Source: a virus. From it: 64,000 nt of DNA. Numbering within the stretch: the first letter of the stretch is position 1; every line of letters starts with the position of its first letter. Under the pieces are notes generated by a model. It did not search any database, was not told the DNA's origin, and saw only the letters and a list, made by a program, of their open reading frames with translations. The position numbers and the translations under genes are program-made. The stretch is taken from positions 1-64,000 of the IMG/VR virus record IMGVR_UViG_3300036861_000330. The stretch is one strand, 5' to 3'. Positions 4,970-64,000 of this stretch are shown one piece after another.

Positions 4970-5620
4970 ATGATACAAAGGAACTTGGCAATGCAAGAAC
5001 GAATTGGTTCCCAAGAAATGGCCGAACGTGCGGTGAGTACGTACCGAAACGGTTTTGAGTTTCTCGGAGCTGGTTCATTCCGTTCCGCGTACCTGGGGCC
5101 AGACGGGTTTGTCTACAAAGTGAACCATAACGGCGACTCGCAAATGCAGGCACGCGAGGCAAATGCGTTTGCGCGGTTGCAGGAAAAGGGTTACTCCTGG
5201 GCACCGCAGTACACGCTTTGGGAAACGCAGAACGGCGACGTGGTTGCCATGCCAAAGTATGGGCAAGCTCCTATCACGGAGTTCTATTCCAGCGACGAGT
5301 ATGCTGAAATGAGTCGCCTTATGTACGACGTGAAAGCTACAAACGCCGGCACGCGCGAGGATGGCTCCTACGTGTTGCTTGACGGCGGTGGCTATAGAAA
5401 TTCCGTGTCTCCGTTTACCGACGAGAATAACGACTCTGATGATGATTTCGATGCTTGGGACAACGACTTCGATAACGACTTTTTCAAATTCGATAACGAC
5501 TTCGATAACGACTTCGATAACGATTCTAACGCCACTACTCTGATGACTACTCCGTTGACTACGGCAAGTGTCACTGTCCTGTTTGTGAACGTTCTCCCCG
5601 AGGCACGTGATAGTACGTAG
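4970..5620 (+). CDS. Ser/Thr protein-kinase-like protein with Asp-rich repeat tail
   Basis: LGAGSFRSAY Gly loop, VYKV, DVKATN catalytic loop, LLDGG; start uncertain. Confidence 0.7.
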   Translation: MIQRNLAMQERIGSQEMAERAVSTYRNGFEFLGAGSFRSAYLGPDGFVYKVNHNGDSQMQAREANAFARLQEKGYSWAPQYTLWETQNGDVVAMPKYGQAPITEFYSSDEYAEMSRLMYDVKATNAGTREDGSYVLLDGGGYRNSVSPFTDENNDSDDDFDAWDNDFDNDFFKFDNDFDNDFDNDSNATTLMTTPLTTASVTVLFVNVLPEARDST

Positions 5621-5716
5621 CGACGTGCCGAATCGTCAGTTCGCATTCATATGGAACCTAGTTGCGTGTTAGTATGGTAATTGCTGGTCATGCAACAACC
5701 GAAAGGTAAAAACAGT

Positions 5717-5989
5717 ATGTGCCAGCGGAACATGACCGAAATTGACCCGGCCACGTACAAGATCGAGTCGTTTTTCCACGCCCTTGTCAATGCGAAGTCT
5801 GACATTGACATTTTCGGCGTTGGAATGCTTGACGAGGAATCCAACCTGATTTGCGTGGAGGTCTCAAACCGGCTTAGCGCTGATATCGAGCGGCTCAAGA
5901 ACTGCTACCAGCGTATCGTAAAGACTGATACGGTGCCACACAAACACGACCACGACCACGGCGGAAACGAAAAGGAACTGACACAGTGA
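5717..5989 (+). CDS. Hypothetical protein
   Basis: AAGGTAA SD, 90 aa. Confidence 0.6.
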   Translation: MCQRNMTEIDPATYKIESFFHALVNAKSDIDIFGVGMLDEESNLICVEVSNRLSADIERLKNCYQRIVKTDTVPHKHDHDHGGNEKELTQ

Positions 5990-6323
5990 CCCAGAAGCGC
6001 GAGCAGGCAAACAAGGCCAAAATGCGGGCAGCGGCATTTCGGCGTCGGAACGAGAAGCACCAGACAAAGGCCGGGCGCGAAGTGTCACGGTTCCGTCGGT
6101 ACTTTGAGGACTACCCTGTGTTTCCAAGTCTCTGGTAATGAGCGATCGACTGCTCACACTGATAACCAGACTTCTTGTTATTGTAGTTGCAGTCCGGTTA
6201 CTCTACGTAGTCGTCACCTAAAAACGGTGTGTGTGGCAAGCAATTGCCATTCTTGCACGCAACTAGGAAAACACTGTGTACGTTGTACTGGCGACTTGCC
6301 AAAGCATTGAAAGGTAAAATGCA

Positions 6324-6767
6324 ATGACGAGTACGCTGAATGCAATTCTTTCAGGTGACAAGGCCGAGAATTTTGGCCTTATCACAAGTTCAACAGACTT
6401 GGCTGAGATCGCACAAGCCTTTGTTGATGTCATCGCGACGGTAAGCCAATCCAAAGGCGACGAGTACGGGCGCAAGCTGGACAACATTCTGGCCAACTCG
6501 GGCGAGCACACCCATATGGGAAAACACTGTGTACGTTGTACTCACGTTCACCGCCAGCAGCAAATTGCATTCCTGTTGAACAGCAAGCTCATTCCAATGA
6601 TGCACGCCATCGCCCCTGTGGGCGGGTTTTTTGGGCTGCATCCCGACTCCGAAACTGATTTTGGCTTCTGGTTCAACGGAACCGCTGAGATGGATGCGGA
6701 GCTTGCGGGCAGCTCGGACGGCCCATCCGACGCGGAGCTACAGAACCACCCAAAGGCGAAGCGGTGA
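6324..6767 (+). CDS. Hypothetical protein
   Basis: AAGGTAA SD, 147 aa. Confidence 0.65.
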   Translation: MTSTLNAILSGDKAENFGLITSSTDLAEIAQAFVDVIATVSQSKGDEYGRKLDNILANSGEHTHMGKHCVRCTHVHRQQQIAFLLNSKLIPMMHAIAPVGGFFGLHPDSETDFGFWFNGTAEMDAELAGSSDGPSDAELQNHPKAKR

Positions 6768-7039
6768 AAACCGTTCTGGCGCGTACTCTCCGCAGTGGTA
6801 TGGTTCTTGGCGACAGCAGGATTGTGGAGTTAACTGCGCGATCCATCTCAAACGGTATGGACAGCGTTTCCATTTGGTTTACAAATGGCGATCATGTCAG
6901 ACTCGATGCGAAGCAGCTCGTGCAGGTCAAGTAACAAAAACAAAAACGACATTGGCAAATCGCCAGTTCAACGTACACAGTGAAGCACAACACGCTGTAT
7001 TGAGCGGCCAAATCAGTACCAATACCAAAGGTAACGTAT

Positions 7040-7348
7040 ATGGCCGACTGGATTTACAGAAATTTCGCTGGCATCATTGTCGCGGCAGTGCTGACAGTCA
7101 TCGTGGTTGCAAATCTTGGCACGCTTGCGTATGAGTCCAACAGAAGTGCTAGTAAGACTGCCAAAACCGTGGTGGTCGTCAATGAGGACTCGATGGTGCC
7201 CAATGGTGATTCGTCGCAGTTCAACCTTGTTATTCCCAAGGAATGCATTTCCGCACACGATGACGGTTCACTAACTGTACGGTGCATGTTCAATCAGGGT
7301 AGGTGGCAATTGGCACCTGACCATCGAGTGCCGGTTGTTTCAGAGTGA
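7040..7348 (+). CDS. Membrane-anchored hypothetical protein
   Basis: N-terminal hydrophobic helix. Confidence 0.65.
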   Translation: MADWIYRNFAGIIVAAVLTVIVVANLGTLAYESNRSASKTAKTVVVVNEDSMVPNGDSSQFNLVIPKECISAHDDGSLTVRCMFNQGRWQLAPDHRVPVVSE

Positions 7349-8182
7349 GCGGAGCCGAAGAGTTCCTAACCCATTTTCTCATTGCAAGCCCGTTCATCAT
7401 CATGCTTGCGGTCCTTGCCGACTTACTTAAGTCCGCTCCGAAAGAGTGGCCCAGTGAGCGCATCGACTAAGGTAATGATTACCACTGTTTGCATTGCGCC
7501 ATGGATCGTCTGGATCCATTTCGTTGTGCAAACCGTACTGCAAGCGTAAGGATCGTTTGGCCGCTTTATTCAGCGTGTTGTGCTTTGCAGTATATTGTAC
7601 CGGGTACAACGATGTGGTTGAAACAGACCATCGCGGTGAAGCGTTGTTGTACCCGGTACAGTGTACTGCAAAAGCCTATGTGCAAAGGCAGAAGTGGAGT
7701 GATCCATATGGCTGCCATGAAAGGTACTGATACGGTCTGCATAGCAAAGGTGTTGGCGCAGTGATTTGGGCATACGGCATTACGCCAACCGCAATCGACT
7801 ACACAAGACTGTGCACGCTGTATCGGCTTGTACGGCACGTAGTCGAGCACCATAAGATCGTGTGTGCGGCAATTCTGTTGGTAATTGCAAGTTGGCACCT
7901 GTCGATTACGCACAGTGTCGAGTATGTCCACAAGCTCCGCGAGATCGATACAGGATTTGAGCACCTCTATATCCATCGTCGTGGCGTTTTGTGGGAAATT
8001 AGTCTGGACGAGGAAAACCCGTTTGGGTTTCTCGGTGACGAGACCGATTGCAATGACGACTGTGACGACATGATCCTTAAGGCAGTACTGAATTCGCCAG
8101 AAACGGAACGTTTCTAGCAAATCGAGTACTGACAAACCTACAGCCTTTGCACATAGGCTTTTGGAGTACACTAATAACACAT

Positions 8183-19372: not shown

Positions 19373-19867
19373 GTGGACTCTTCTAGCAATTTTCTAGCAA
19401 TTTGGATTATTGTAGCAATTTGGATTATTCTAACAGTTTGTGTCTTCGTACATGTAGTTGTAGTCAACTTGCCTAATTTAGCAATTTGGGCCGTCCGGTC
19501 TATTTTCCTGCCACAACCATTCACAGTTGAGTGGCAACGTCATGGTCTGCTCTATCATGCGACGAGACAGCGAAGTGAAACCAGTCCAGCGAACGAACAA
19601 TATTTCCTCGATACAATGGGCGTTGGCCCGTATTTAGTAAAATATGGTTCACTGCATTACTCCGACTTGACTGGCCAGCTTTGGAGTTCCCGGCGATTTC
19701 CAGGTCGAAATGAACCAATCGTCGCCGTCCGTGTCATCGATACGACAACCAACGAAGTGCACTGGCTACGAGTTCCACCAGAGTTTCGACGAAACAGCCC
19801 ACGCGCTGCGGTTGCGTGGACATTTCGGATGGAACGGGGGGACTATTACCCAGCAGTCGAAGCATAA
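19373..19867 (+). CDS. DUF6745-like protein
   Basis: C-terminal HWLRVPP...AAVAWTF...YYPAVEA. Confidence 0.6.
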   Translation: MDSSSNFLAIWIIVAIWIILTVCVFVHVVVVNLPNLAIWAVRSIFLPQPFTVEWQRHGLLYHATRQRSETSPANEQYFLDTMGVGPYLVKYGSLHYSDLTGQLWSSRRFPGRNEPIVAVRVIDTTTNEVHWLRVPPEFRRNSPRAAVAWTFRMERGDYYPAVEA

Positions 19868-19927
19868 CAACAATGGCGTCTAGATATCGTACGAAAATCT
19901 TAGATAGTGTCGGCGCCTACTAGAAAT

Positions 19928-20000
19928 GCGCCAGTAGTTCAGTGGATAGAACGCCGCGCTACGGACGCGGAGGGCGGGGGTTCGAATCCCTCCTGGCGTA
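19928..20000 (+). tRNA. tRNA-Arg(ACG)
   Basis: Cloverleaf. Confidence 0.92.
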
Positions 20001-20135
20001 CGGTTGGGTAGGCTGTAAAAATGGGGCACACACTGTGTCACTACTATAGGCGCCTTGTGGAGCCACGAAAATCTATTGATGGGACGGCGCCTAACAGATA
20101 GTCGAGTATCTGAATGGATAGCGGCGCTCAGAACT

Positions 20136-20209
20136 GCGATCGTTGGTTAACGGATAAACCACCAGTCTTCTAAACTGGGCATATGTGGGTTCGAGTCCCA
20201 CCGATCGCA
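20136..20209 (+). tRNA. tRNA-Arg(TCT)
   Basis: Cloverleaf. Confidence 0.9.
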
Positions 20210-20412
20210 CGGTGCAACGGTGTTACTTGTCTGGTTGGCGCTCGTACAGGCCGTAATTTGCGATCTAGCACCGTTGCATCACCTGGCACAGGGAGAGGAC
20301 TTTCCGCGGCGCTTTCACAGGCCATACTACAAGTTGCACTCTCCCTGTGCCATCAACCTATCGGCGCCTATTACATGAGCGAAAATCTGCGATCTCCGCG
20401 GCGGCAACAATT

Positions 20413-20483
20413 GCGGTTGTAGGTTAACGGTAAACTATCTGTCTTCCAAACAGAAATTGCGGGTTCGATTCCCGCCAACCGTA
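20413..20483 (+). tRNA. tRNA-Gly(TCC)
   Basis: Cloverleaf. Confidence 0.9.
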
Positions 20484-20693
20484 CAATGGCCATACAAATA
20501 AATGGTGAACAGTGAGACCACTCACGATGACCACCATACTCTAATTCATGGCCAGATCCGAGTTTTTTGACGGCTCTGAGTTTACTCGGACATCAAATAA
20601 AACCATAGCCAAAGGTTTTCTTGTAATGGTTCCTTATAAACCCTTACACGGGTACTTTGGCAGTTTCTCCCGATACCAAGGAAACTGCCACTA

Positions 20694-20769
20694 CGGGGCG
20701 TCGTCTAGGTTGGCCTAAGACGCAGGGCTCATAATCCTGTCATCGTGGGTTCGAATCCCACCGCCCCCA
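20694..20769 (+). tRNA. tRNA-fMet(CAT)
   Basis: CAT anticodon, C1 mismatch, GGG in anticodon stem. Confidence 0.85.
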
Positions 20770-20847
20770 CGAAGGTAACGGATCGGTTGGTAATGAGGAG
20801 GTGGTAATAATGACACTATAGGTATTGCCTCACTGTAGGAGAACAGC

Positions 20848-21174
20848 ATGGCGCTCAAGGAAAAACGGCTTTATTATCTTCGCAAGTTCCTCAACCGCCC
20901 ACGCTACAGTGCTGGCGCGTTTATCATTGCTGAGGCGACTGAGCAACGCTGGGAGCACAAGACAAAGCGAGGACAGCGAGAAGAAAAAACACTACAAGTT
21001 GTCCTCGAAATCGCAGACTGTTACCATCACGTCAACCTGGAAATCGACACTAGTACGGTGCGAGAACGGACGAACGGCCTTCACAAGCTCGATGTTCTGA
21101 TAGAAACACTTACTGCACTTAGAAGTGCAGTAGAAAAGTGGTGCGTCGAGAACCCAACAAAAACTCGGCAATAA
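20848..21174 (+). CDS. Hypothetical protein
   Basis: AGGAG SD, 108 aa. Confidence 0.75.
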   Translation: MALKEKRLYYLRKFLNRPRYSAGAFIIAEATEQRWEHKTKRGQREEKTLQVVLEIADCYHHVNLEIDTSTVRERTNGLHKLDVLIETLTALRSAVEKWCVENPTKTRQ

Positions 21175-21180
21175 GTTTAT

Positions 21181-21259
21181 GGTGATCGTAGCTCAGTCTG
21201 GTTTAGAGCGCCTGGTTGTGATCCAGGAGGTCGGGGGTTCGAGTCCCCTCGGTCACCCA
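21181..21259 (+). tRNA. tRNA-His(GTG)
   Basis: Cloverleaf with G-1 and encoded CCA. Confidence 0.93.
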
Positions 21260-21308
21260 GTACCTCTTATAAGCAAGAAGAGCTACTTACAGAACTTCGT
21301 ATATGCAT

Positions 21309-21381
21309 GCCCACCTAGCTCAGTTGGCAGAGCAGTGTCTTCGTAATGCACAGGTCGTCGGTTCGATTCCGACGGTGGGCT
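21309..21381 (+). tRNA. tRNA-Thr(CGT)
   Basis: Cloverleaf. Confidence 0.9.
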
Positions 21382-21432
21382 CATGGCGCCTATCGGAGTT
21401 ACGAAAATCTGTAGGCATGTCGGCGCCAAAAC

Positions 21433-21504
21433 GGGCGTGTAGCTTAGCGGAAAAGCGCTTCGTTCACACCGAAGAGATCGCAGGTTCGAGTCCTGCCATG
21501 CCCA
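21433..21504 (+). tRNA. tRNA-Val(CAC)
   Basis: Cloverleaf. Confidence 0.92.
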
Positions 21505-21763
21505 CGAGGGGGAGAAATGCCAGAGCCGTACAAAATCCTTGGCGTCCCGAAGGAAGAGTGGGATCGAAAGGTAGCCGAGGCAGAAGCACGTGGCACCACT
21601 ACGTGTATAAATTGTGGCCATAAGCAGTACCGACGCCCACACCCCTGGCACTGCGGACTATGCTGGGTTTTGCAAACTGATTGTAGAGAATAACAAGCAA
21701 GGCCCCACGGGACACGGCGCCTATTACTGGAACTAAAAGATATACCCGCTGCGGCGCTGTACT

Positions 21764-21837
21764 GCCCACATAGCTCAATTGGTTAGAGCACCAGTTTTGT
21801 AAACTGGTGGTTGCGGGTTCGATTCCTGCTGTGGGCT
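21764..21837 (+). tRNA. tRNA-Thr(TGT)
   Basis: Cloverleaf. Confidence 0.92.
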
Positions 21838-21893
21838 CGAAGAATAATGGCGCCTGTTACGCTACGAATATCTAAGTCAAGTCGGCGTCAAAT

Positions 21894-21980
21894 GGCGGGT
21901 TGGCAGAGCGGACTATTGCACCTGTTTTGAAAACAGGCAGAGCCTAAAAACTCACGTGGGTTCAAATCCTACACCCGCCG
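21894..21980 (+). tRNA. tRNA-Ser(TGA)
   Basis: Cloverleaf with long variable arm. Confidence 0.9.
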
Positions 21981-22057
21981 CGAGGAGAGTGATGGGAACA
22001 CAGTGCATACGGCGCCTAAAGGTTAACGGGTGCTTCGTGGATTCGGCGCTGTGCAAA

Positions 22058-22129
22058 GGGCAATTAGCTCAGAGGTAGAGCGCTTCCTCGACACGGAAGA
22101 GGTCGAAGGTTCAAGTCCTTCATTGCCCA
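22058..22129 (+). tRNA. tRNA-Val(GAC)
   Basis: Cloverleaf. Confidence 0.92.
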
Positions 22130-22217
22130 CGACGGCGCCTATAACTTGCCCGAGACGCTGTACAAACGGCGGCGCCTACGCCAGCCACGGAAATCTATGG
22201 TAGAACCGGCGCCAAGT

Positions 22218-22306
22218 GGCGAGTTGGCAGAGTCAGGTCGATTGCGTCCGCCTGCTAAGCGGATAGAGTTTAATCGCTCTCGTGGGTTCAAATCCCGCAC
22301 TCGCCG
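22218..22306 (+). tRNA. tRNA-Ser(GCT)
   Basis: Cloverleaf with long variable arm. Confidence 0.9.
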
Positions 22307-22317
22307 CAAAAGTGCAA

Positions 22318-22390
22318 TGGCATGTGGGGTAATTTGGTAGCCCGCAAGGTTCTGGTCCTTGTCGTCTAGGTTCGAGTCCTAGCGTGCCAG
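22318..22390 (+). tRNA. tRNA-Gln(CTG)
   Basis: Cloverleaf. Confidence 0.9.
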
Positions 22391-22655
22391 CAAAAGGAAA
22401 GGAGTTGACGGATGAGCAGTGACAGTACACAGTACCAACAGTCATTTCCAGAGTGCTGGACGGTCTTTGACAAGCGAACGGATCGCCGTTGTACAAACGT
22501 TTCCTTTCCATCCAAAGAACTCGCGGACCAGCAAATCGCGCAGTGGGTCGAGCGAGATAAGCGAGGGAAGCGACAGGACGTGCACGATCTCATTCCACAC
22601 ATGGAAGCACGACGGGTTTGGTAACCGAGAAGGGTACTGCGAAAGTGACTGACTG

Positions 22656-22727
22656 TGGCGATTAGTGTAACAGGCAGCACACGAGGTTTTGGTCCTCGTA
22701 GTCTGAGTTCGAATCTTAGATCGCCAG
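22656..22727 (+). tRNA. tRNA-Gln(TTG)
   Basis: Cloverleaf. Confidence 0.9.
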
Positions 22728-22738
22728 CGAACTGAAAC

Positions 22739-22811
22739 GGCCGCGTAGCTCAGGGGAAAGAGCATCTGGTTCCGAACCAGAAGGTCGCAGGTTCGATTCC
22801 TGTCGCGGTCG
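22739..22811 (+). tRNA. tRNA-Arg(CCG)
   Basis: Cloverleaf. Confidence 0.9.
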
Positions 22812-22821
22812 CACAAAAAGT

Positions 22822-23136
22822 GGCGCCTATAAGATGGCGAAAGTCTACGAGAACGACGGCGCCAAGAAATGCCCGTGTAGCTCAACTGGAAGAGCTGTGC
22901 CCTCTTAAGGCAACGGTTGCAGGTTCAAGTCCTGTCACGGGTACAACGGCGCCTACGAGTCGTTGGAAGCTATAGTTTAGCGGCGCCTATAGAAAGAGCG
23001 AATATCTAGGATTGAACCGGCGCCTAATTGATGCCCGAAAATCTCTACACAGGAGCGGCGCCTATCAGGTACACGAAAATCTGAACGACTTGCGGCGCCT
23101 GTAGTTGCACCGAAAATCTGTATCGCACGCGGCGCC
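22822..23136 (+). repeat. TIGR-like arrays (22822-22863, 1 unit; 22947-23136, 5 units)
   Basis: CGGCGCCT and CGAAAATCT alternate with ~37-nt period between tRNAs. Confidence 0.9.
22871..22943 (+). tRNA. tRNA-Lys(CTT)
   Basis: Cloverleaf. Confidence 0.9.
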
Positions 23137-23142
23137 AGTATT

Positions 23143-23218
23143 GCCCGTGTAGCTCAACTGGCAGAGCCCCTGACTTTTAATCAGGATGTTGCAGGTTCGA
23201 TTCCTGTCACGGGTACCA
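23143..23218 (+). tRNA. tRNA-Lys(TTT)
   Basis: Cloverleaf with CCA. Confidence 0.92.
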
Positions 23219-23276
23219 AGAATTGGAGTAACCATACGAAGGTTGTTAGCTTTACGAAAGTAGTAAACATGAGTAA

Positions 23277-23350
23277 GCGGGTGTGCGCAAACTGGCAAAG
23301 CGGCTTGTCTTAGGAACAAGTGTATGAGAGTTCGACTCTCTCCACCCGTA
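23277..23350 (+). tRNA. tRNA-Leu(TAG)
   Basis: Cloverleaf, short variable arm. Confidence 0.85.
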
Positions 23351-23405
23351 CAGGGTAAGGAACCAACACCGAAAAGGAACACGTACACAAAGGAAACTGA
23401 TTCAA

Positions 23406-23903
23406 TTGTCCCAGCATGATATTGCATTCACAGTTGACATTGCAGGCTCCTCAGCGGAGTATGTGCAGTTGACTACCCACCGCGAGTTCTACGATAACGA
23501 AGAGATGTGGGTCGAGACTGTCAACGGTCGCGTCCGCAAAGCCGAAATTGACAAGGCAAAGCAGAAGGCAAAAGCCAAGAGTCGAGTTCGCTACGACGAG
23601 TACGGCGGCTTGGTTGACGACAATGACGACGACCTCCGCGCACAGGTCGAGGAACTGATCGCAGAGAAGCGGAAGAGCAAGACCGCCGAGCAGAACCCTG
23701 CTGCGCTTGAACACAAGGCCACCATTCGGATGCCAGTTGCCGACGCGGTTGGGTTCCAGACGGGCCGCTGGTACCGGCTCCGGTTTGAGCCAGTTGACGA
23801 GGGTGTAAGCCTTCGCAGCTTCTTTACGCAAGACCAGCGTGAAACGGCCGCTGTTGAGCGTAACCAGGAATCGTCCAGGCAGCAAGCAGCTCCAACCAAG
23901 TAA
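23406..23903 (+). CDS. Hypothetical protein
   Basis: 165 aa, AAGGA SD. Confidence 0.7.
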   Translation: MSQHDIAFTVDIAGSSAEYVQLTTHREFYDNEEMWVETVNGRVRKAEIDKAKQKAKAKSRVRYDEYGGLVDDNDDDLRAQVEELIAEKRKSKTAEQNPAALEHKATIRMPVADAVGFQTGRWYRLRFEPVDEGVSLRSFFTQDQRETAAVERNQESSRQQAAPTK

Positions 23904-23915
23904 CAAGCCACGCAG

Positions 23916-23974
23916 TAGCAAACGGCGTCTAAACTCAAGCCGAGAATCTTATACTTTGGCGGCGCCGTTTGCTA
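23916..23974 (+). repeat. Single TIGR-like unit enclosed by a stem
   Basis: TAGCAAACGGCGTC...GGCGCCGTTTGCTA. Confidence 0.8.
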
Positions 23975-24025
23975 TCCTTACCCTTGCGTGCGCAGTAAAA
24001 ACTTAGAAGGAGGAAACCAAAAGAA

Positions 24026-24421
24026 ATGAACTATGAGCATCTGATCATCCGCGTGCCACATATTAACACCGAATATGCATATGAAGAAGGTGAGAAATTC
24101 GATATCACTAAGGGTGGTATAGTTAAACACCACGCGGAGGTGGTTGCGAAAGGCAAACTAGCTGAACGCGCGTACCGTCTAGCAAAGGATGGCCGTTCAT
24201 CCGGAGCACCATTTATGCAAAGTACAACACTTGGAGAAATCCCTGGTGAGTCAGCTCGCCGCTCGATGATTCGTTTTCGGAAAAGCACAACATATGGAGG
24301 AATCCCTGGCGTTATTGGAACGCTCCATCCAGGCGATGAGGTAATCGTCAGCGTTTCACGGACTGGGTATACATACAAGGCGGTTGTCGAGACCGTGTTC
24401 GAGCCGTACCTGCCAAAGTAG
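24026..24421 (+). CDS. Hypothetical protein
   Basis: AGGAGG SD, 131 aa. Confidence 0.7.
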   Translation: MNYEHLIIRVPHINTEYAYEEGEKFDITKGGIVKHHAEVVAKGKLAERAYRLAKDGRSSGAPFMQSTTLGEIPGESARRSMIRFRKSTTYGGIPGVIGTLHPGDEVIVSVSRTGYTYKAVVETVFEPYLPK

Positions 24422-24423
24422 CA

Positions 24424-24726
24424 AGCGCCTTTCGAAACGGCGAAAAGCTAAGAACCTGTCGGCGCCTGTACATGACACGAACATCTGCTGTGGAAGCGGC
24501 GCCTGGATGAGGAACGAAAATCTATTGATCCTACGGCGCCTATGATAACGGCGAGAGTCTATTGATCCGACGGCGCCTATGATACCGGCGAGAAGCTGAA
24601 ATGCCCCCGGCGCCTACTATGAAGGCGAAAGTCTAGTACCTCCCCGGCGTCTGTCGAGCGGGCGAAAAGCTAATAACTGACCGGCGCCTAGGGCAGCATC
24701 GAATGTCTAAAGCTCGACGCGGCGCT
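24424..24726 (+). repeat. TIGR-like array, 8 units
   Basis: CGGCGCC at 24497, 24534, 24571, 24608 (exact 37-nt period). Confidence 0.95.
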
Positions 24727-24731
24727 GAGTT

Positions 24732-24804
24732 GCGGGCGTAGCTCAATTGGCAGAGCACTGCGTTGCCAACGCAGAGGTTACGGGTTCGAGCCCCGTTGTC
24801 CGCT
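24732..24804 (+). tRNA. tRNA-Gly(GCC)
   Basis: Cloverleaf. Confidence 0.92.
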
Positions 24805-24821
24805 CGGTGCATTTGTATAGT

Positions 24822-24938
24822 GGCGCTTGTCGTACTCCCGAAAAGCTGTTCGGAAAACGGCGCCTACGTTCAAGGCGAAAGCTGTGACATCATCGGCGCC
24901 TCTGTTCCCTGCGAAAAGCTATATAATGCACGGCGCCT
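24822..24938 (+). repeat. TIGR-like array, 3 units
   Basis: Same consensus. Confidence 0.9.
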
Positions 24939-24969
24939 TCATACAGGACGAGTAGCTAAGGAGTGACCG

Positions 24970-25152
24970 GTGCTTACTCCGCGTGACCCAAACAGGATTC
25001 CAGCAATACTAGAAATGTTGAAGCAAGTCTGGACACGGTACCCAGACTGGCGGCTGGGGCAACTCATTGAAAACCTTGATATCTCGTTTTTCACCGAGGA
25101 TGACGAGGCACTTCGTAAGCTGCACGAATACGAGTTTGATACTGGCCTCTGA
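24970..25152 (+). CDS. Small phage protein (YihD/DUF1040-like)
   Basis: RDPNRIPAILEMLKQVWTRYPDWRLGQLI. Confidence 0.7.
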   Translation: MLTPRDPNRIPAILEMLKQVWTRYPDWRLGQLIENLDISFFTEDDEALRKLHEYEFDTGL

Positions 25153-25155
25153 AAT

Positions 25156-25346
25156 GGCGCCTAACGCCGCTTCGAATAACTATGAACTAGACGGCGCCTA
25201 AAGAGCTAGCGAAAAACTGAGTGCAGGTCGGCGCCTGTATCAACAGCGAAAGTCTGTGCAGATCTCGGCGCCTATAGGTTTAACGAAAATCTGTGCGGAT
25301 CTCGGCGCCTGTGACATGAGCGAAAAACTGAATGCAGCTCGGCGCC
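25156..25346 (+). repeat. TIGR-like array, 5 units
   Basis: Same consensus, ends 4 nt before tRNA-Ile. Confidence 0.92.
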
Positions 25347-25350
25347 AAAG

Positions 25351-25426
25351 GGGCTTGTAGCTCAGTCAGGTTATGAGCGCTGCTCTGATAAAGCAGAGGT
25401 CGATGGTTCAAATCCATCCAAGCCCA
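25351..25426 (+). tRNA. tRNA-Ile(GAT)
   Basis: Cloverleaf. Confidence 0.92.
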
Positions 25427-25468
25427 CTTAGTGGGAGTCGATTACAAGAAAATGGAAAGGAAGAAGAG

Positions 25469-25939
25469 ATGACAATGCTGTCAGAAGCGCTAACACGGCG
25501 CGGCGACTTGATGAAAAAGCTTGTTGATCTTCGTGACCGTACAACTGCAAACGCACGGTTCCAGGAGGGAAGCGAGGCACAGGAAGACCCGAAAAAGCTG
25601 ATGGAGCAGTGGCTTACGGCAGCAAATGAACTAGCCGAACTCATTGCACGGATCAACCTGACGAACTCAGCGACACCGTTTGACGACGTTAATACGTTAA
25701 CCAACGTACTGGCAAAGCGAGAAGCACTTGGCCGAAGTCGAAAGTTTTACACTGAGCTTGCCGACGCAGCCTCAGGACGTGGCAAGCGTGTACTATGGCG
25801 CTACAGCAAGGACGAGATCCGTACACTGACCACGCTTGACGTGCCAGAGCTACGGCGACTGTCTGACGACACGGCCGCTGAGTACCGTAAGCTTGACCAG
25901 CAAATTCAGCGGCTCAACTTCACGACAGAACTTTTGTAA
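25469..25939 (+). CDS. DIP1984-family coiled-coil protein
   Basis: MLSEALTRRGDL...QEG..AQEDP...IARINLTN...QIQRLNFTTEL. Confidence 0.8.
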   Translation: MTMLSEALTRRGDLMKKLVDLRDRTTANARFQEGSEAQEDPKKLMEQWLTAANELAELIARINLTNSATPFDDVNTLTNVLAKREALGRSRKFYTELADAASGRGKRVLWRYSKDEIRTLTTLDVPELRRLSDDTAAEYRKLDQQIQRLNFTTELL

Positions 25940-26016
25940 GAACTCGACGGGAGTCTACGGCCACTCGTGAGAGCCCGTTAGGAGGGCGCCCACGACGACT
26001 CCCGTCGAGTACAACG

Positions 26017-26255
26017 CCAAGGTAGTTGGTAGCCAAAACAAACAAGAGCGAGTGCAACAGTGACTCCTTGTCACCAGGCTTGAAACCTGGCCACTGTGTG
26101 CGTTGGAGCCGTACGTACTTGCAAATGCGTTTACAGGGCACCGAGCAGCTCCATCGTACCGAGTACATACGCGGATGTGTCCAACTGTTCACCGCGCACG
26201 ACCACTGCACTGACTTGTGAATTTTGGTGAGGGTGGGACAGGGGACCACCTTGGC
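26017..26255 (+). ncRNA. Candidate structured RNA downstream of the DIP1984-family gene
   Basis: Closed by GCCAAGGT/ACCTTGGC; internal hairpins; no credible ORF. Confidence 0.5.
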
Positions 26256-26352
26256 AGTAGTAGAAATGGCGTCTAGTTAGCTTACGAAAATCTGTTATAG
26301 ATGCGGCGCCTATTGCGGGAACGAAAATCTGTACGTGCGTCGGCGCCATAAC

Positions 26353-26425
26353 GGAACCGTAGCTCAGTCGGCAGAGCACCTGGCTGAAAACTAGGGGGTC
26401 GCCCGTTCAATCCGGGCCGGTTCCA
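26353..26425 (+). tRNA. tRNA-Phe(GAA)
   Basis: Cloverleaf. Confidence 0.9.
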
Positions 26426-26427
26426 TT

Positions 26428-26501
26428 GGGGGCATAGCTCAATTTGGAAGAGCATCTGCTTTGCATGCAGAAGGTTTGGGGTTCGAGTCCCCATGTCTCC
26501 A
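26428..26501 (+). tRNA. tRNA-Ala(TGC)
   Basis: Cloverleaf with G3:U70. Confidence 0.92.
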
Positions 26502-26507
26502 CATTAT

Positions 26508-26581
26508 GGGGCGTATTTCACTGGTTGTGGAAGCGAGGCTTATATCCCCGTTAGAGCAGAGTTCGATCCTCTGGCGCCCTA
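26508..26581 (+). tRNA. tRNA-Ile(TAT), atypical
   Basis: Good acceptor and T arms, CTTATAT loop, weak D arm and one anticodon-stem mismatch. Confidence 0.6.
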
Positions 26582-26645
26582 CAATTATCATGTGAACCAA
26601 TTCACAAAGTAAATTTTCACGTTTTTGGGAAATTTTGAGTTTTGC

Positions 26646-26718
26646 GGTCCCGTCGTCTAGCGGCCTAGGATTGAACTCCTTCAAAGTTCGGACGCCGGTT
26701 CGAATCCGGTCGGGACTA
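26646..26718 (+). tRNA. tRNA-Glu(TTC)
   Basis: Cloverleaf. Confidence 0.88.
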
Positions 26719-26769
26719 CAAATGGCGCCTGTAGCTGCCACGAAAATCTATCCGAGATTCGGCGCCAAT

Positions 26770-26844
26770 GGCCAGATGAAGGGAATTGGCATACCTGGAA
26801 TACTTAAAATATTCCGCTTGTGGGTTCGAGTCCCACTCTGGCCA
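26770..26844 (+). tRNA. tRNA-Leu(TAA)
   Basis: Cloverleaf, short variable arm. Confidence 0.85.
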
Positions 26845-26853
26845 CCTACGTAA

Positions 26854-26928
26854 GGCCAAGTGACGGGAACTGGTATACCTCGAATACTCAAAATATTCGG
26901 TTTGTGGGTTCGAATCCCACCTTGGCTA
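26854..26928 (+). tRNA. tRNA-Leu(CAA)
   Basis: Cloverleaf, paralogue of the preceding tRNA. Confidence 0.85.
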
Positions 26929-26979
26929 CGACGGCGCCTAGTACCCATGGCGAAAATCTATGATTGCGCCGGCGCCAGT

Positions 26980-27054
26980 GGCTCCATCGTTCAGTCAGGT
27001 CTAGGACGCCAGATTGTCAATCTGGTAACGCGGGTTCGAATCCCGTTGGAGCCG
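26980..27054 (+). tRNA. tRNA-Asp(GTC)
   Basis: Cloverleaf. Confidence 0.92.
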
Positions 27055-27180
27055 CAAGTGGCGCCTATGGATGAACTGCAACGCTAATGGCCGAGCGGCG
27101 CCTGTTCCATGGTCGAAAATCTATTGGTCAGACGGCGCCTGTTACACAGTCGAAAATCTATTGGCCTGACGGCGCCAACT

Positions 27181-27251
27181 GCCCCCATCGTTTATTGGTA
27201 GGATCGTAGGTTCTCAACCTACAGAAGTGGGTTCAATTCCCACTGGGGGCA
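27181..27251 (+). tRNA. tRNA-Glu(CTC)
   Basis: Cloverleaf. Confidence 0.88.
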
Positions 27252-27652
27252 CGAAAGGAGGGAACCATAATGATGTCTGATATCAGTATCGTCTTAGATG
27301 AACGGATGACATGGAAAGAGCGAGAAGAACTCGCACAACAGGTCTTTGAACTAGTCAATAGCAAGTGGAGTGAACGGTACTCCAACTCAGTTTATGGTCC
27401 ATGGCCTGGGGAGTTTGATGAATATCGATTTAAGGTTAGGGAGACGTAATGTGGGTTCGTGTTGAAGAAGACGATCGTATGAAAACCATCTATCTTGATG
27501 TCGCAGCGAAAGCTGGTAGCCTTGAAAACTATATTCACATGCCAAGAGAGTTATACGATGAGTGGCGCGGTGCACAGGACGCGCTTGAGCGCGTAGAGAG
27601 TAAGATCCGTTTATTCGTAGCAGATCAGGACGGAGTTATTCATTAGTGGTAT

Positions 27653-32763: not shown

Positions 32764-33726
32764 GTGATGAGTATGACCGAGCACAATCAACTACCAGCAG
32801 CAAGACCGTATGTGAAAGACCAGAACCAGATCGACTACCGGTACGCTGTTATTCCATTGAACCAAATCACAATCGACAAGCGGTATCAGCGTCCGCTCAA
32901 TGAGGCACGGCTGCAACGGATGGTCAATAACTTTCAGCGAAACCTACTCGGTGTACTGGTGCTTTCACTGCGCCATGACGGTCGATACTACGCATTGGAT
33001 GGCCAGCACCGGTTCCGGTTGCTGAACAAGGTTGGGTGGACAACCGCGCCATCGATCGTGTATGAGAATCTAGCTGAAGCACAAGAAGCAATGCTGTTTG
33101 AGCAGATGAACACACAGCGTGCGACACCAGATGCGTTGACGCTATTCCGCGCGAAGGTGATGGGTGGCGATGTCAATGCAATTAAGGTGCTCGACATCTT
33201 GACGGGTCAGGGCTGGGAAGTGCCAGAACGCCCAGGCTTTAAGACACACAAGCCGGGCACAATGAGTGCCATCCGCTCCTGTGAACTGGCATACGAACGG
33301 TATGGCCCGGAAGTGTTTGAGATTACCGTGAACGTCTTGCGTAATGCCTGGCCACACAGCTCTGTTGCTGGCTCGTCCAAGTTGGTGCTTGGGCTCTCGA
33401 AGATGATCATGCTGTTTTACGACATTTTGAAAGTGAAGCGCCTGTTTGCAAAGCTTCAAGTGACAACGCCAGGTGCGATCCTCACTCGCGGCAGCCAACT
33501 CAAAGACGCAATCCCAGGACTGAACAAGGCTGAAGACAGCGTCGGCATGGCCCTGTGGGGGCAGTACACATCGAACATGCGGAACAAGCTGCCTAGCTGG
33601 GAAACAAGAAAGCTTAGGAAAAGCCAGAAGACCGGTAAGTATGTGGTGCAACGGCTAACGATTGAGCAGGAGTTTCCCGACGAGCCTGACGAAGAGACTG
33701 CTGAAACTGCTGAAACTGCTGAGTGA
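32764..33726 (+). CDS. ParB/Srx-like protein (DUF6551-like)
   Basis: IDKRYQRPL...YYALDGQHR. Confidence 0.8.
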   Translation: MMSMTEHNQLPAARPYVKDQNQIDYRYAVIPLNQITIDKRYQRPLNEARLQRMVNNFQRNLLGVLVLSLRHDGRYYALDGQHRFRLLNKVGWTTAPSIVYENLAEAQEAMLFEQMNTQRATPDALTLFRAKVMGGDVNAIKVLDILTGQGWEVPERPGFKTHKPGTMSAIRSCELAYERYGPEVFEITVNVLRNAWPHSSVAGSSKLVLGLSKMIMLFYDILKVKRLFAKLQVTTPGAILTRGSQLKDAIPGLNKAEDSVGMALWGQYTSNMRNKLPSWETRKLRKSQKTGKYVVQRLTIEQEFPDEPDEETAETAETAE

Positions 33727-36921: not shown

Positions 36922-37426
36922 CGGCGCCTAAGCCAGCAGCGAGAGTCTTGTCTTCAATCGGCGTCTATCACATTGCTGTGTAGTTAACACCCTGTCGGCG
37001 CCTACACATAGGGCGGAGATCTGTGTCAACTCGGCGCCAAGACAGTAGGGAGGAGGTTTACAGTGTTTGGAGACAGTTCTTCTGTTGGTTCACATACTAA
37101 CAGTATCAAGAGGGAAGCGCCACCGGTCGCGTGGTGGGCGTTTAACCCGAATGGTATCCGTCCAGACCCGAAGCGGTAACCAAAGAATTGGGCGGCGCAG
37201 TGGTAAAACCGAGCATGCGCCAAGGTTGGAGGAGCAGTGAAGGCGGAACGAGATTAAAGGTGTGATGGCCCTTTGATCTTGAGCGCCGACGGACATAAGC
37301 CTTCGCCCACAGCATACCTTCGTGGGTGCTGTGACCGTAAGTCGCAGGCCGAGATAACGCTGCGCCGTCCAATTTCTAGTTATAGCGCCTAAGCGGACAG
37401 CGAGTATCTATTGCGAGCCCGGCGCT
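36922..37426 (+). repeat. TIGR-like units (36922-37038, 3 units; 37385-37426, 1 unit)
   Basis: Same consensus; the last unit precedes tRNA-Thr. Confidence 0.8.
37187..37374 (+). ncRNA. Candidate structured RNA
   Basis: AATTGGGCGGCGCAGTG pairs with CGCTGCGCCGTCCAATT; internal hairpins. Confidence 0.55.
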
Positions 37427-37434
37427 ACAGGAGT

Positions 37435-37507
37435 GCCCACCTAGCTCAGTTGGTAGAGCATTTCCTTGGTAAGGAAAAGGTCATCGGTTCAATCCCGATG
37501 GTGGGCT
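37435..37507 (+). tRNA. tRNA-Thr(GGT)
   Basis: Cloverleaf. Confidence 0.92.
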
Positions 37508-37700
37508 CGTTGGCAGGAAGGGTGCCCAAGGAATACTTGAATACCTGGGGATGCGTGGGGAGCCGGGCCTATGCGAACACGGTCCACGTTAGTTGCGACC
37601 CCCTCCTGCCAATAACATCATGGGAAAGGAACTACTGTGCAAGAAATAGGACTACTATAAGAAAGGTGGTGAACGCATAGCACTAACGGATCAGCCAGTA

Positions 37701-41678: not shown

Positions 41679-42008
41679 GTGATCGATCTGGCGGTGACGC
41701 AGCGGACGATCTTCAAGTGGGTGTGTCGGAACTTCCCATCCACTGACGCGAAAAGTGACGCGAAAAGCCAGCTCCTCAATATTGGTGAGGAAGTCGGAGA
41801 ACTAATGCGCTGCGAGCTAAAGGGGTCGCAAGGAATTCGAGGTGATGACTGGGACGAACAGGCAAAGAAAGAGTTTGGTGATGTTATCTTGTCGCTGCTG
41901 TGTTATGCGTCGCTCAAGGGCTTTGATGCGGAGGAGGTAATTACTGCACGAATGAAGGAAGTGACTGTTCGCGACTGGCTTGCGAACAAGCTGACTGGCG
42001 GCGCCTAA
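41679..42008 (+). CDS. MazG-like nucleotide pyrophosphohydrolase
   Basis: IGEEVGEL...KEFGDV. Confidence 0.88.
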   Translation: MIDLAVTQRTIFKWVCRNFPSTDAKSDAKSQLLNIGEEVGELMRCELKGSQGIRGDDWDEQAKKEFGDVILSLLCYASLKGFDAEEVITARMKEVTVRDWLANKLTGGA

Positions 42009-55028: not shown

Positions 55029-55643
55029 ATGCCAAGACGAAACAACCCACCAGAACGGAGGCGAGCGGTGGTAAAGACAAGACCAGAAGCTATCGCTCGC
55101 CAGCCGTTCACAGTACTGAAAAACCTTAACGGACTGCGTCTCACTACACCAGCCGTCGTGATGCTTGAACCGAAGTTCGTCAACAACATCGGGTCAATGA
55201 TTCGCAACTGTGCATGCTTCGGTGTTGAGTATCTGATCTATACAGGAGACCGGGTTGACATCCCCACAGGTGGGAAGGGCGACCGGCTGCCACGCCAGGA
55301 GCGCATGCGGCAGTACCAGACAGTGAAAGTTGTCAACGTGGATTTTCCAATGTCGTTCTTTCCTCCTAGTACCGTACCGGTTGGCGTTGAGCTGACACCG
55401 TCGGCGATGCCACTGCCACTGCTTGACCACCCGACCAGTGCCGTGTATATTCTCGGCCCTGAAGACGGCTCAGTCCCAGCGGGATGGCGCGAACTGTGCC
55501 ACCACATTGTACAAATTCCGTCGGAACACTGTCTCAACGTGGCACAAGCTGGTGGCATTGTGTTGTACGACCGAATGGTCTCACGGTGGCGAGCTGGCAG
55601 AGGACAGTTATTGACACTTCAAGAGGACCGTGGTCATGGATAG
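55029..55643 (+). CDS. SpoU/TrmH-family RNA methyltransferase
   Basis: NNIGSMIRNC, ILGPEDG, CLNVAQAGGIVLYDR. Confidence 0.9.
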   Translation: MPRRNNPPERRRAVVKTRPEAIARQPFTVLKNLNGLRLTTPAVVMLEPKFVNNIGSMIRNCACFGVEYLIYTGDRVDIPTGGKGDRLPRQERMRQYQTVKVVNVDFPMSFFPPSTVPVGVELTPSAMPLPLLDHPTSAVYILGPEDGSVPAGWRELCHHIVQIPSEHCLNVAQAGGIVLYDRMVSRWRAGRGQLLTLQEDRGHG

Positions 55644-55768: not shown

Positions 55769-55811
55769 GGCGCCTATTTGACATCCGAAAATCTGTATGC
55801 TAGCGGCGCCA
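55769..55811 (+). repeat. TIGR-like single unit
   Basis: GGCGCCT-atttgacatc-CGAAAATCT-gtatgctag-CGGCGCCA. Confidence 0.82.
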
Positions 55812-62792: not shown

Positions 62793-62834
62793 TGGCACTG
62801 AGCAACAGCACTACATGGAGCTAACGTAGCACAA

Positions 62835-63354
62835 CGTCTATGCAGAAGCCGAAAATCTAAAGGAACGGCGGCGTTGTAACACACAAAGTCCGACCCTACC
62901 TGGAAGGTCTCGCGGCGGCGAGCAGGTAGGGTCGGACATCTTTGGCGCTTAATGACCGGACGAAAATCTGTGATACAGTCGGCGCCTATAGAAGCCTCGA
63001 AAATCTAACGCTGAAACGGCGTCTATGAACCTGACGAAAATCTAGCCCGACACCGGCGCCTACGCATGGGACGAAAGTCTGCTCGAACCTCGGCGCCTAT
63101 TAGAAGTACGAAAATCTGTGATAGTGTCGGCGCCTACGCGGTTTGCGCAAAGCTAGAGTGTACGCGGCGCCTGCTACATTTCGAATGACTAGGGGATCTC
63201 GGCGCCTGACACGAACGCGAATATCTACAGCAGGTTCGGCGCCTAGGGACTCTGCGAAAATCTATATCCGGCTCGGCGCCTAGGGACTTAGCGAAAATCT
63301 ATATCCCACGCGGCGCCTATGGACTCAGCGAAAATCTAAGTTTGGCCCGGCGCT
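62835..63354 (+). repeat. TIGR-like array (1 unit, hairpin, then 11 units) ending at tRNA-Cys
   Basis: Very regular consensus 62944-63354. Confidence 0.95.
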
Positions 63355-63359
63355 GTAGT

Positions 63360-63430
63360 GCCCACGTGGCTGAGTGGTGAGGCGCAGGTCTGCAAAACCT
63401 GCTTCCCCGGTTCGATTCCGGGCGTGGGCT
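63360..63430 (+). tRNA. tRNA-Cys(GCA)
   Basis: Cloverleaf. Confidence 0.9.
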
Positions 63431-63436
63431 CGTAGA

Positions 63437-63509
63437 GGGGCTGTAGCTCATATGGCAGAGCGCTGCGTTCGCATCGCAGAGGTAATGGGTTCAATTCCCA
63501 TCAGCTCCA
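63437..63509 (+). tRNA. tRNA-Ala(CGC)
   Basis: Cloverleaf. Confidence 0.92.
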
Positions 63510-63512
63510 CAT

Positions 63513-63860
63513 GGCGTCTATGCCTGAGGCGAAAATCTGTGCTATTCGCGGCGCCAGTAGGGGCTATAGCTCAATTTGGCAGAGCGCTTGCGTGGCACGC
63601 AAGAGGTTGTGGGTTCGAGTCCCACTAGCTCCACGAAGTATCTATTTGGCGCCTTTTCCTCAGTCGGAAGTCTGTCCCTCGCACGGCGCCTATTTCTCTG
63701 CGGAAAGCTAATGTACGATCGGCGCCTACTTGGTACTCGGTTATCTAAAGATCTCACGGCGCCTGTCTCCGACTCGCGAGTCTATGTAGCTCACGGCGCC
63801 TAAGTCGCCACGCAAGTCTCTTTACCTATCGGCGCCTTTGAGAGCCACAACTATCTAAAC
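63513..63860 (+). repeat. TIGR-like arrays (63513-63555, 1 unit; 63648-63860, about 6 units)
   Basis: Same consensus, between tRNAs. Confidence 0.88.
63560..63633 (+). tRNA. tRNA-Ala(GGC)
   Basis: Cloverleaf. Confidence 0.92.
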
Positions 63861-63875
63861 AGAACGCAGCTAACA

Positions 63876-63949
63876 CGGGCGATAGCGAAGCTTGGTATCG
63901 CGTCTGGTTTGGGACCAGAAGACCGGGGGTTCAAATCCCTCTCGCCCGA
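63876..63949 (+). tRNA. tRNA-Pro(TGG)
   Basis: Cloverleaf. Confidence 0.92.
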
Positions 63950-64000
63950 CTACGCACGGCGAACAAGAAAGACGACCAGTGCAACAACCGCAAGAACAAC

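Follow-up and report, generated by a model that had tools for sequence, protein, structure and literature searches.

Guide units of a predicted TIGR-TasA system interleaved with tRNA genes in a phage genome, and a possible contribution of tRNA-end processing to their release

The stretch of DNA considered here (the window, 64,000 nucleotides [nt]) comprises positions 1 to 64000 of the 103,156-bp IMG/VR phage record IMGVR_UViG_3300036861_000330 and carries many short dual-repeat units placed between or directly before tRNA genes. An initial annotation had described this arrangement for positions 19875 to 27251 and had suggested a natural tRNA-guide polycistron. ARAGORN predicted 37 tRNA genes in the genome, all of them on the + strand and 27 of them within 19875-27251, and Rfam confirmed 31 of the 34 that lie at 14 to 64 kb (47 to 74 bits) while matching no other family to the repeat units of that region. 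Judged by their sequences, the tRNA genes look functional. Only tRNA-Lys(TTT) encodes CCA, and the remaining genes would therefore need 3' end cutting followed by CCA addition; in nearly every tRNA gene the discriminator base is followed by a C and then by a purine, with no CCA.

Each unit consists of an edge repeat (CGGCGCCTR), 9 nt, a loop repeat (CGAAAATCTR), and a further 9 nt, with a period of 37 nt (range, 36 to 38 nt), and arrays with a 37-nt period were also returned by Tandem Repeats Finder. A position weight matrix (PWM) was built from the best unit copies and scanned over both strands and a shuffled sequence; it gave the layout as C-GGCGCC-T-R, 9 variable nt, CGAAAATCT-R, 9 variable nt, and the next CGGCGCC. 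Strong PWM copies numbered 92, all of them on the + strand; the - strand and the shuffle gave none, and nhmmer added 8 further degenerate copies. The genome therefore holds 100 units, of which 96 lie in the window and 41 within 19875-27251, all co-oriented on the + strand along with transcription and distributed over about 43 contiguous blocks that are spread over 85 kb. Arrays open with TGGCGCC in place of CGGCGCC and close without the final TR. The variable segments are almost all unique among units; near-identical spacers occur in neighboring units (24535/24572, 63238/63275/63312, and 27097/27134), which indicates that arrays grew by tandem duplication. The units occupy the sense strand within noncoding gaps of the early and middle gene region and are densest in the tRNA clusters, where they stand in for the tRNA-tRNA spacers. 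The mean PWM score was 38.1 for tRNA-cluster units and 36.4 for the units beside tasA; the tRNA-cluster units are thus as near the consensus as the latter and are not decayed relics.

The tasA gene is an open reading frame (ORF) whose product matched the TasR structure 9MTY with phmmer (E = 9e-6), and a profile of its 30-member TasA family reached 2e-19 against 9MTY and 5e-11 against TasH. Its AlphaFold (AF2) model had a predicted local distance difference test (pLDDT) score of 89.8, and the top ten Foldseek matches of this model were TasR and TasH chains (9mty, 9w03), followed by IS110-family recombinases. The protein was classed as TasA because it has no nuclease domain. The genome has no other tas gene. 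Around tasA, at 42000-45497, lie about 27 units, and the other 73 or so are 1 to 56 kb away, a placement not described in the TIGR papers that were consulted. Since a dual-repeat architecture and a TasA gene occur together, we assign the repeats, from sequence and the modeled fold, as tigRNA guide units of a dual-repeat TIGR-TasA system. Two other candidates were rejected: the repeat as a promoter, given the lack of -10-like conservation, the tandem arrays, and the matching Tas gene, and the loop repeat as a tRNA fragment or T-loop, given a spacing unlike that of a tRNA 3' half.

In published dual-repeat TIGR arrays, two alternating repeats of 8 to 12 nt (edge and loop) are combined with two spacers of about 9 nt, the processed guide is 36 nt, and the first edge is truncated at its 5' end and the last edge at its 3' end (PMC12045711). 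The Flavonifractor plautii system (FpTIGR; Faure et al. 2025, PMC12045711) has in common with the phage system edge and loop repeats of 9 to 10 nt, two 9-nt spacers, truncated first and last edges, a nuclease-free Tas protein of coiled coil and Nop domain, ParB-like genes nearby, and carriage by a phage. It differs in its period (36 nt there, 37 nt here), in having tas-adjacent arrays rather than about 100 units over 85 kb, and in its C-terminal Tyr/His loop, which is absent from the family here; moreover, it is a tRNA gene rather than a terminator that follows many of the phage arrays. The fixed ends of both repeats read CG...CUR in the phage, whereas the published boxes read UG...CCA, i.e., other letters at equivalent positions. 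Stem-loop TIGR arrays (PlTasA, BlTasA, and CsTasR; Faure 2025; bioRxiv 10.64898/2026.09.09.750476) share flexible unit positions with the phage system, in which a 6- to 7-bp closing stem is predicted. Their edges, however, are variable palindromes, whereas the edges here are a conserved repeat; no CUU motif was seen at the stem base here, and closing-stem covariation is not significant. The phage system is a TIGR-TasA member, and the genome-wide dispersal of its units together with the tRNA-embedded blocks is a new variation in the organization of such systems.

About 20 tRNAs had initially been noted as having a guide unit 3 to 10 nt upstream. A 3'-truncated last edge repeat was indeed found 3 to 10 nt before position +1 in 19 of the 37 tRNAs, and the list was the same, with Val-GAC added: Arg-ACG, Arg-TCT, Gly-TCC, Val-CAC, Thr-TGT, Ser-TGA, Val-GAC, Ser-GCT, Lys-CTT, Lys-TTT, Gly-GCC, Ile-GAT, Phe, Leu-TAA, Asp, Glu-CTC, Thr-GGT, Cys, and Ala-GGC (Table 1). 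The terminal edge before these tRNAs reads GGCGCC, GGCGCT, or GGCGTC (CGGCGCCA, CGGCGCTG, or similar). Downstream of about 11 tRNAs, the first edge repeat lies within 16 nt. Exactly one unit is present in each of six tRNA-tRNA spacers of 49 to 58 nt; other such spacers hold 2, 3, or 5 units, and spacer lengths step by 37 nt. Unit-tRNA junctions measure 2 to 10 nt and are on the same strand throughout. Altogether, 16 of 29 arrays ended 2 to 11 nt before a tRNA, against a mean of 0.5 and a maximum of 5 in 20,000 random array placements in noncoding DNA. A unit end was present no more than 12 nt upstream of 16 of 37 tRNAs versus 1 of 73 coding sequence (CDS) starts (Fisher P = 2.5e-8), and gaps of at least 45 nt held a unit more often upstream of tRNAs (17 of 27) than upstream of CDSs (10 of 44; P = 0.001), with both comparisons based on our own crude ORF calls. 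The adjacency to tRNAs thus far exceeded that of other intergenic gaps, a comparison on which the initial annotation had in part made its proposal depend. In addition, a U occupied position -1 in 14 of the 19 unit-adjacent tRNAs versus 5 of the 18 others (P = 0.009). Bacterial RNase P prefers a U at this position.

Table 1. Positions of guide units, tasA, and adjoining tRNA genes in the window
Feature	Position	Strand	Context	Evidence
1 unit	19875..19917	+	last edge 10 nt before tRNA-Arg(ACG) 19928-20001	PWM score 42.0
2 units	20049..20128	+	end 7 nt before tRNA-Arg(TCT) 20136-20210	PWM
1 unit	20363..20405	+	end 7 nt before tRNA-Gly(TCC) 20413-20484	PWM
1 unit	21385..21427	+	fills 50-nt spacer, tRNA-Thr(CGT) 21309-21382 / tRNA-Val(CAC) 21433-21505	7-bp closing stem folded
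1 unit	21716..21758	+	end 5 nt before tRNA-Thr(TGT) 21764-21838	PWM
1 unit	21849..21889	+	between tRNA-Thr(TGT) and tRNA-Ser(TGA) 21894-21981	nhmmer E = 0.0096
1 degenerate unit	22011..22050	+	end 7 nt before tRNA-Val(GAC) 22058-22130	nhmmer
2 units	22134..22213	+	fill spacer tRNA-Val(GAC) / tRNA-Ser(GCT) 22218-22307	PWM
1 unit (36 nt)	22822..22863	+	between tRNA-Arg(CCG) 22739-22812 and tRNA-Lys(CTT) 22871-22944	nhmmer E = 1.2e-5
5 units	22948..23136	+	fill spacer tRNA-Lys(CTT) / tRNA-Lys(TTT) 23143-23218	PWM + nhmmer
1 unit	23924..23963	+	between two small CDSs, 20 nt past stop codon	PWM
8 units	24424..24726	+	start 2 nt past stop codon; end 5-6 nt before tRNA-Gly(GCC) 24732-24805	
4 units	24822..24974	+	start 16 nt past tRNA-Gly(GCC), reach into start of 60-amino-acid ORF	PWM + nhmmer
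5 units	25156..25346	+	start 3 nt past stop codon; end 4 nt before tRNA-Ile(GAT) 25351-25427	
2 units	26268..26347	+	end 5 nt before tRNA-Phe 26353-26425; then Ala-TGC, Ile-TAT at 2-5 nt spacing	
1 unit	26724..26766	+	fills 50-nt spacer, tRNA-Glu(TTC) 26646-26719 / tRNA-Leu(TAA) 26770-26846	
1 unit (38 nt)	26933..26976	+	fills 50-nt spacer, tRNA-Leu(CAA) 26854-26929 / tRNA-Asp 26980-27055	
3 units	27060..27176	+	fill spacer tRNA-Asp / tRNA-Glu(CTC) 27181-27252	
1 unit	37384..37426	+	end 8 nt before isolated tRNA-Thr(GGT) 37435-37508	
About 14 units, six blocks	42000..43197	+	upstream of tasA	PWM + nhmmer
Split of 42000..43197 by ORF 42347-42841	7 units 42000-42321, 7 units 42826-43197	+		
tasA	43282..44064	+	260-amino-acid coiled coil + Nop domain, no nuclease domain	sequence + fold matches
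13 units (2, then 11)	44781..45497	+	downstream of tasA	PWM
About 11 units, three blocks	62833..63354	+	end 5 nt before tRNA-Cys 63360-63431; tRNA-Ala(CGC) 5 nt further	
1 unit	63513..63555	+	fills 49-nt spacer, tRNA-Ala(CGC) 63437-63510 / tRNA-Ala(GGC) 63560-63634	
3-5 units, partly degenerate	63648..63836	+	between tRNA-Ala(GGC) and tRNA-Pro 63876-63950	PWM + nhmmer

From the sequence, we consider it fairly probable that the units and tRNA genes form an embedded tRNA-guide polycistron in which cuts at tRNA ends contribute to guide release. Cotranscription with tRNA-end cutting is the simplest reading because the units and tRNAs share a strand and their junctions are too short for promoters or terminators. 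At 19.8 to 27.3 kb, no sigma-70-like promoter or intrinsic terminator was predicted in any unit-tRNA junction, and a promoter scan of the same region with a sigma-70-type consensus, which may not be that of the host, found fewer promoter-like sites than in shuffles. One precursor transcript would carry units and tRNAs together. RNase P would cut at each tRNA 5' end, 3 to 10 nt past the truncated last edge, and a 3' endonuclease would cut after the discriminator of the mostly CCA-less tRNAs, 3 to 5 nt before the first edge, so that both cuts together would free pre-guides of one to eight units. Junctions within arrays would be cut inside the edge repeat by a separate RNase, TasA binding would set a guide of about 37 nt, and exonucleases would trim the ends. 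For many guides at once, the tRNA operon would be a source of strong untranslated transcription and of ready-made end processing. The U at position -1, the near-consensus embedded units, and the absence of the Tyr/His loop from TasA fit such a polycistron without proving it.

In characterized systems, the edge repeat is cut either by Tas itself or by an unknown RNase with Tas (PMC12045711; PMC13421893). SpTasH cuts its own precursor by means of a C-terminal loop that contains Y289 and H296 (PMC13421893); Xu et al. (2026, bioRxiv 10.64898/2026.09.09.750476) describe a C-terminal Tyr/His loop as conserved among dual-repeat systems. In the TasA family of the phage this loop is missing, and most of the 30 members stop 3 to 10 residues past the last Nop helix. 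The window TasA has a 31-residue tail (43975-44064, the C terminus) that contains a Tyr and no His and was modeled with low confidence. TaTasR does not cut its own precursor and needs an unidentified host RNase (PMC12045711); the Tyr/His loop is thus not required for TIGR-Tas membership, and in a family that lacks the processing loop host RNases are plausible. Searches with Pfam and PHROGs found no RNase among the genes beside tasA or in the tRNA cluster.

Several points weigh against the polycistron. Cuts at tRNA ends cannot part the units inside arrays of 2 to 11 units, and another nuclease is therefore needed. The initial suggestion that tRNA maturation releases pre-guides thus held in part: guide identity, the shared strand, and the junctions of 2 to 10 nt argue for it, and the array-internal junctions would be left uncut. 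As about 60 of the 100 units lie in arrays or gaps without tRNAs, tRNA-end processing would be an auxiliary route at most and not the general maturation mechanism. Internal promoters are possible given the consensus that was used in the scan, and in yeast tigRNA-tRNA arrays were less efficient than plain TIGR arrays (bioRxiv 10.64898/2026.07.30.739390). In two relatives described below (L066 and L033), large arrays close to tRNAs are not interleaved with them. In the phage itself, CDS-CDS gaps are likewise filled by arrays, and arrays start 2 to 7 nt past stop codons; to some extent the close spacing thus reflects general compaction and is not specific to tRNAs, and the tRNA cluster may be favored merely as the largest stretch that is untranslated but transcribed. 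The same placements invite an explanation that we regard as unlikely, though by no means negligible, in which the units are real TIGR guides that arose by local duplication in transcribed, untranslated DNA under genome economy and tRNA processing adds nothing. Such passive packing agrees with the arrays flush behind stop codons, with the tandem duplication evident in neighboring spacers, with tRNA-tRNA junctions that hold no unit and are just as tight (2 to 10 nt), and with the large noninterleaved arrays of the two relatives. However, if the tRNAs mature at all, cuts land 3 to 10 nt from unit edges, whether "used" or not. Also against packing are the enrichment of units upstream of tRNAs among gaps of at least 45 nt, the excess of U at -1 and of complementary first and last edges beside tRNAs, the recurrence of the layout in divergent phages, and a TasA without the known self-processing loop.

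A role of the repeats in DNA itself, as oriented sites for a phage protein (e.g., a ParB-like protein) or as recombination sites that move tRNA cassettes, is improbable. The window does contain two ParB-like genes and the edge core GGCGCC is palindromic, but an association with ParB-like genes has itself been published for TasA loci (PMC12045711), the layout of two repeats and two 9-nt segments is that of a tigRNA, with a Tas gene inside the densest arrays, and the variable segments are almost all unique, unlike those of iterons. The orientation of all 100 copies with transcription also argues against it. Apart from similar CGGCGCTGTA-type junctions that precede Thr-TGT and Cys, two distant loci, nothing supported the cassette shuffling by repeats that the initial annotation had offered as an alternative, and no close relative with which to compare the tRNA order was found. 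Still harder to credit are box C/D-like guides that direct modification of the neighboring tRNAs, e.g., with the SpoU-family methyltransferase encoded at 55029-55643 in the window, although the Nop domains of Tas proteins have relatives among the box C/D snoRNP proteins (PMC12045711) and the spacers of the unit at 63055-63097 could pair with tRNA-Val(CAC) at the T arm (9/9) and at the acceptor 3' strand (7/9). This match, with both spacers on the same strand, is at an estimated chance level (about 0.1). The excess of spacer-tRNA matches came from only three spacers, which match conserved T- or D-arm motifs, and two-part matches were at chance in every geometry relative to shuffled spacer pairing; on these grounds guides against the phage tRNAs were rejected. 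Moreover, the characterized Tas proteins, TasA included, bind DNA. Self-targeting of the phage genome likewise showed no excess over shuffled spacer pairing in four geometries (the published two-strand geometry and three others, with gaps of 0 to 6 nt and at most 2 to 3 mismatches). The guides are probably directed at sequences of the host or of other mobile elements.

The edges of tRNA-adjacent blocks gave a further lead. All eight of the single-unit spacers that were folded close with a 6- to 7-bp stem from the first edge to the last edge, and fully complementary 7-nt ends were present in 12 of 19 tRNA-adjacent blocks versus 3 of 24 others (P = 0.001; post hoc). The seventh pair of this block-end stem is U-A or C-G. 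Covariation in the closing stem was not significant among the 18 single units (52 of 500 shuffles reached the observed score), and we treat the stem as a lead only. A more far-reaching and rather doubtful version of the polycistron is that the TasA clade without the Tyr/His loop has handed guide biogenesis over to host tRNA maturation, such that RNase P and the 3' endonuclease would be required for tRNA-flanked units to yield functional guides, and that the complementary edges (UGGCGCC...GGCGCCA) would fold inter-tRNA blocks into modules that separate tRNA folding from guide folding. If this is true, a bacterial virus would have a natural equivalent of the tRNA-snoRNA genes of plants and of engineered tRNA-guide arrays, and the search for what matures the guides of nonautonomous Tas systems would be pointed to a host enzyme.

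No close relative of the phage was found in the GenBank phage collection, and the only other carriers of its repeat type were two short contigs that lack tRNAs (L009 and L065). Relatives of the window TasA are encoded at 55 viral loci. One of these, a 133-kb phage (L010), has a TasA that is 46% identical, the edge CGCTTAGCCA, and the loop ACGATWCCCA; its units immediately flank tRNA-Cys and tRNA-Tyr and immediately follow tRNA-Gly. In L034, a unit lies directly after tRNA-Asp. Many dispersed units were found in L033 and L030-L032, none of which adjoins the single tRNA gene of each fetched stretch. An array of about 40 units in L066, a contig to which a tRNA-region protein had led, is of the UG...CCA type and lies near seven tRNAs without being interleaved with them. 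The repeats read CG...CCA in the TasA-family relatives L010, L033, and L034, and UG...CCA in L066. The tRNA-adjacent layout thus recurs in divergent Tas phages (L010 and L034) and is not universal. The L066 array (5570-7440) consists of about 40 canonical TIGR units with the edge GTGCGAGCCA and the loop GTGAAAYCCA; just before its second sub-array (at about 6950-7070) there is a T-arm-like end that ARAGORN did not call a tRNA.

Engineered tRNA-guide RNA arrays for Cas9 rely on the tRNA-processing enzymes of the cell for guide release. The phage arrangement shares with them the tRNA-guide-tRNA order, including six one-guide spacers, and differs in being natural and in that the guides keep their edge repeats. 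In plants, dicistronic tRNA-snoRNA genes are known in which, according to the title of the report, the snoRNA is processed by RNase Z (Kruszka et al. 2003, ref. 66 in PMC12045711). Like the proposed phage transcript, they join a tRNA to a dual-guide RNA bound by a Nop protein in one transcription unit. They are eukaryotic genes transcribed by RNA polymerase III (Pol III), with one tRNA, one snoRNA, and guidance of RNA methylation, whereas the phage is bacterial and has dozens of tRNAs and guides, relatives that target DNA, and a processing route that is predicted only. The Science paper on TIGR systems cites the plant genes solely as examples of clustered snoRNAs (PMC12045711). In the TIGR literature that was searched, arrays are placed around tas and adjacency to tRNA genes is not mentioned; the word "tRNA" is absent from the 2026 TIGR survey.

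The mean number of guides per dual-repeat array in the 2026 survey is about 16, and the phage carries about 100, many of them set singly between tRNA genes. Searches confined to the tas neighborhood would accordingly miss most of the guides of a system of this kind. TIGR-Tas systems were described only in 2025, and their natural roles, the expression of their arrays, and guide maturation without Tas cutting are questions of the field. The phage system allows one to ask directly whether cuts by RNase P and RNase Z plus trimming are sufficient for a working guide, and its junctions supply natural models for the design of tRNA-spaced tigRNA arrays, whose performance has been poor to date.

The + strand of the record encodes a SNF2 helicase, a primase-like DUF3987 protein, a PD-(D/E)XK nuclease, and a family A DNA polymerase, and this replication gene set identifies the record as that of a phage. 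The polymerase (49904-52105) carries an N-terminally fused domain of the uracil-DNA glycosylase (UDG) superfamily. TasA loci are associated with ParB-like genes (PMC12045711), and the two ParB-like genes of the window are at 32764-33726 and 46653-47711 (DUF6551 and ParB_N); neither directly adjoins tasA. The record starts with 14 perfect copies of ACATACCAT (1-127), followed at 141-192 by about 2.9 copies of an 18-mer; the repeats at 1-192 may mark a genome end or an assembly edge. Just 5' of the tRNA-unit cluster, at 19381-19490, TAGCAATTTGG(ATTA) occurs three to four times; this stretch could represent the operator or promoter region of the tRNA-unit transcription unit. An AC dinucleotide run of 33.5 copies (48523-48589) is at the end of the ORF at 47695-48618. 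The SpoU-family gene, which encodes a 2'-O-methyltransferase, is followed by a lone guide unit (55769-55810). Beyond the window, three + strand units are present inside the late-gene region (93806-93922), where they are antisense to the surrounding late genes on the otherwise - strand, and a further lone unit is present at 100185.

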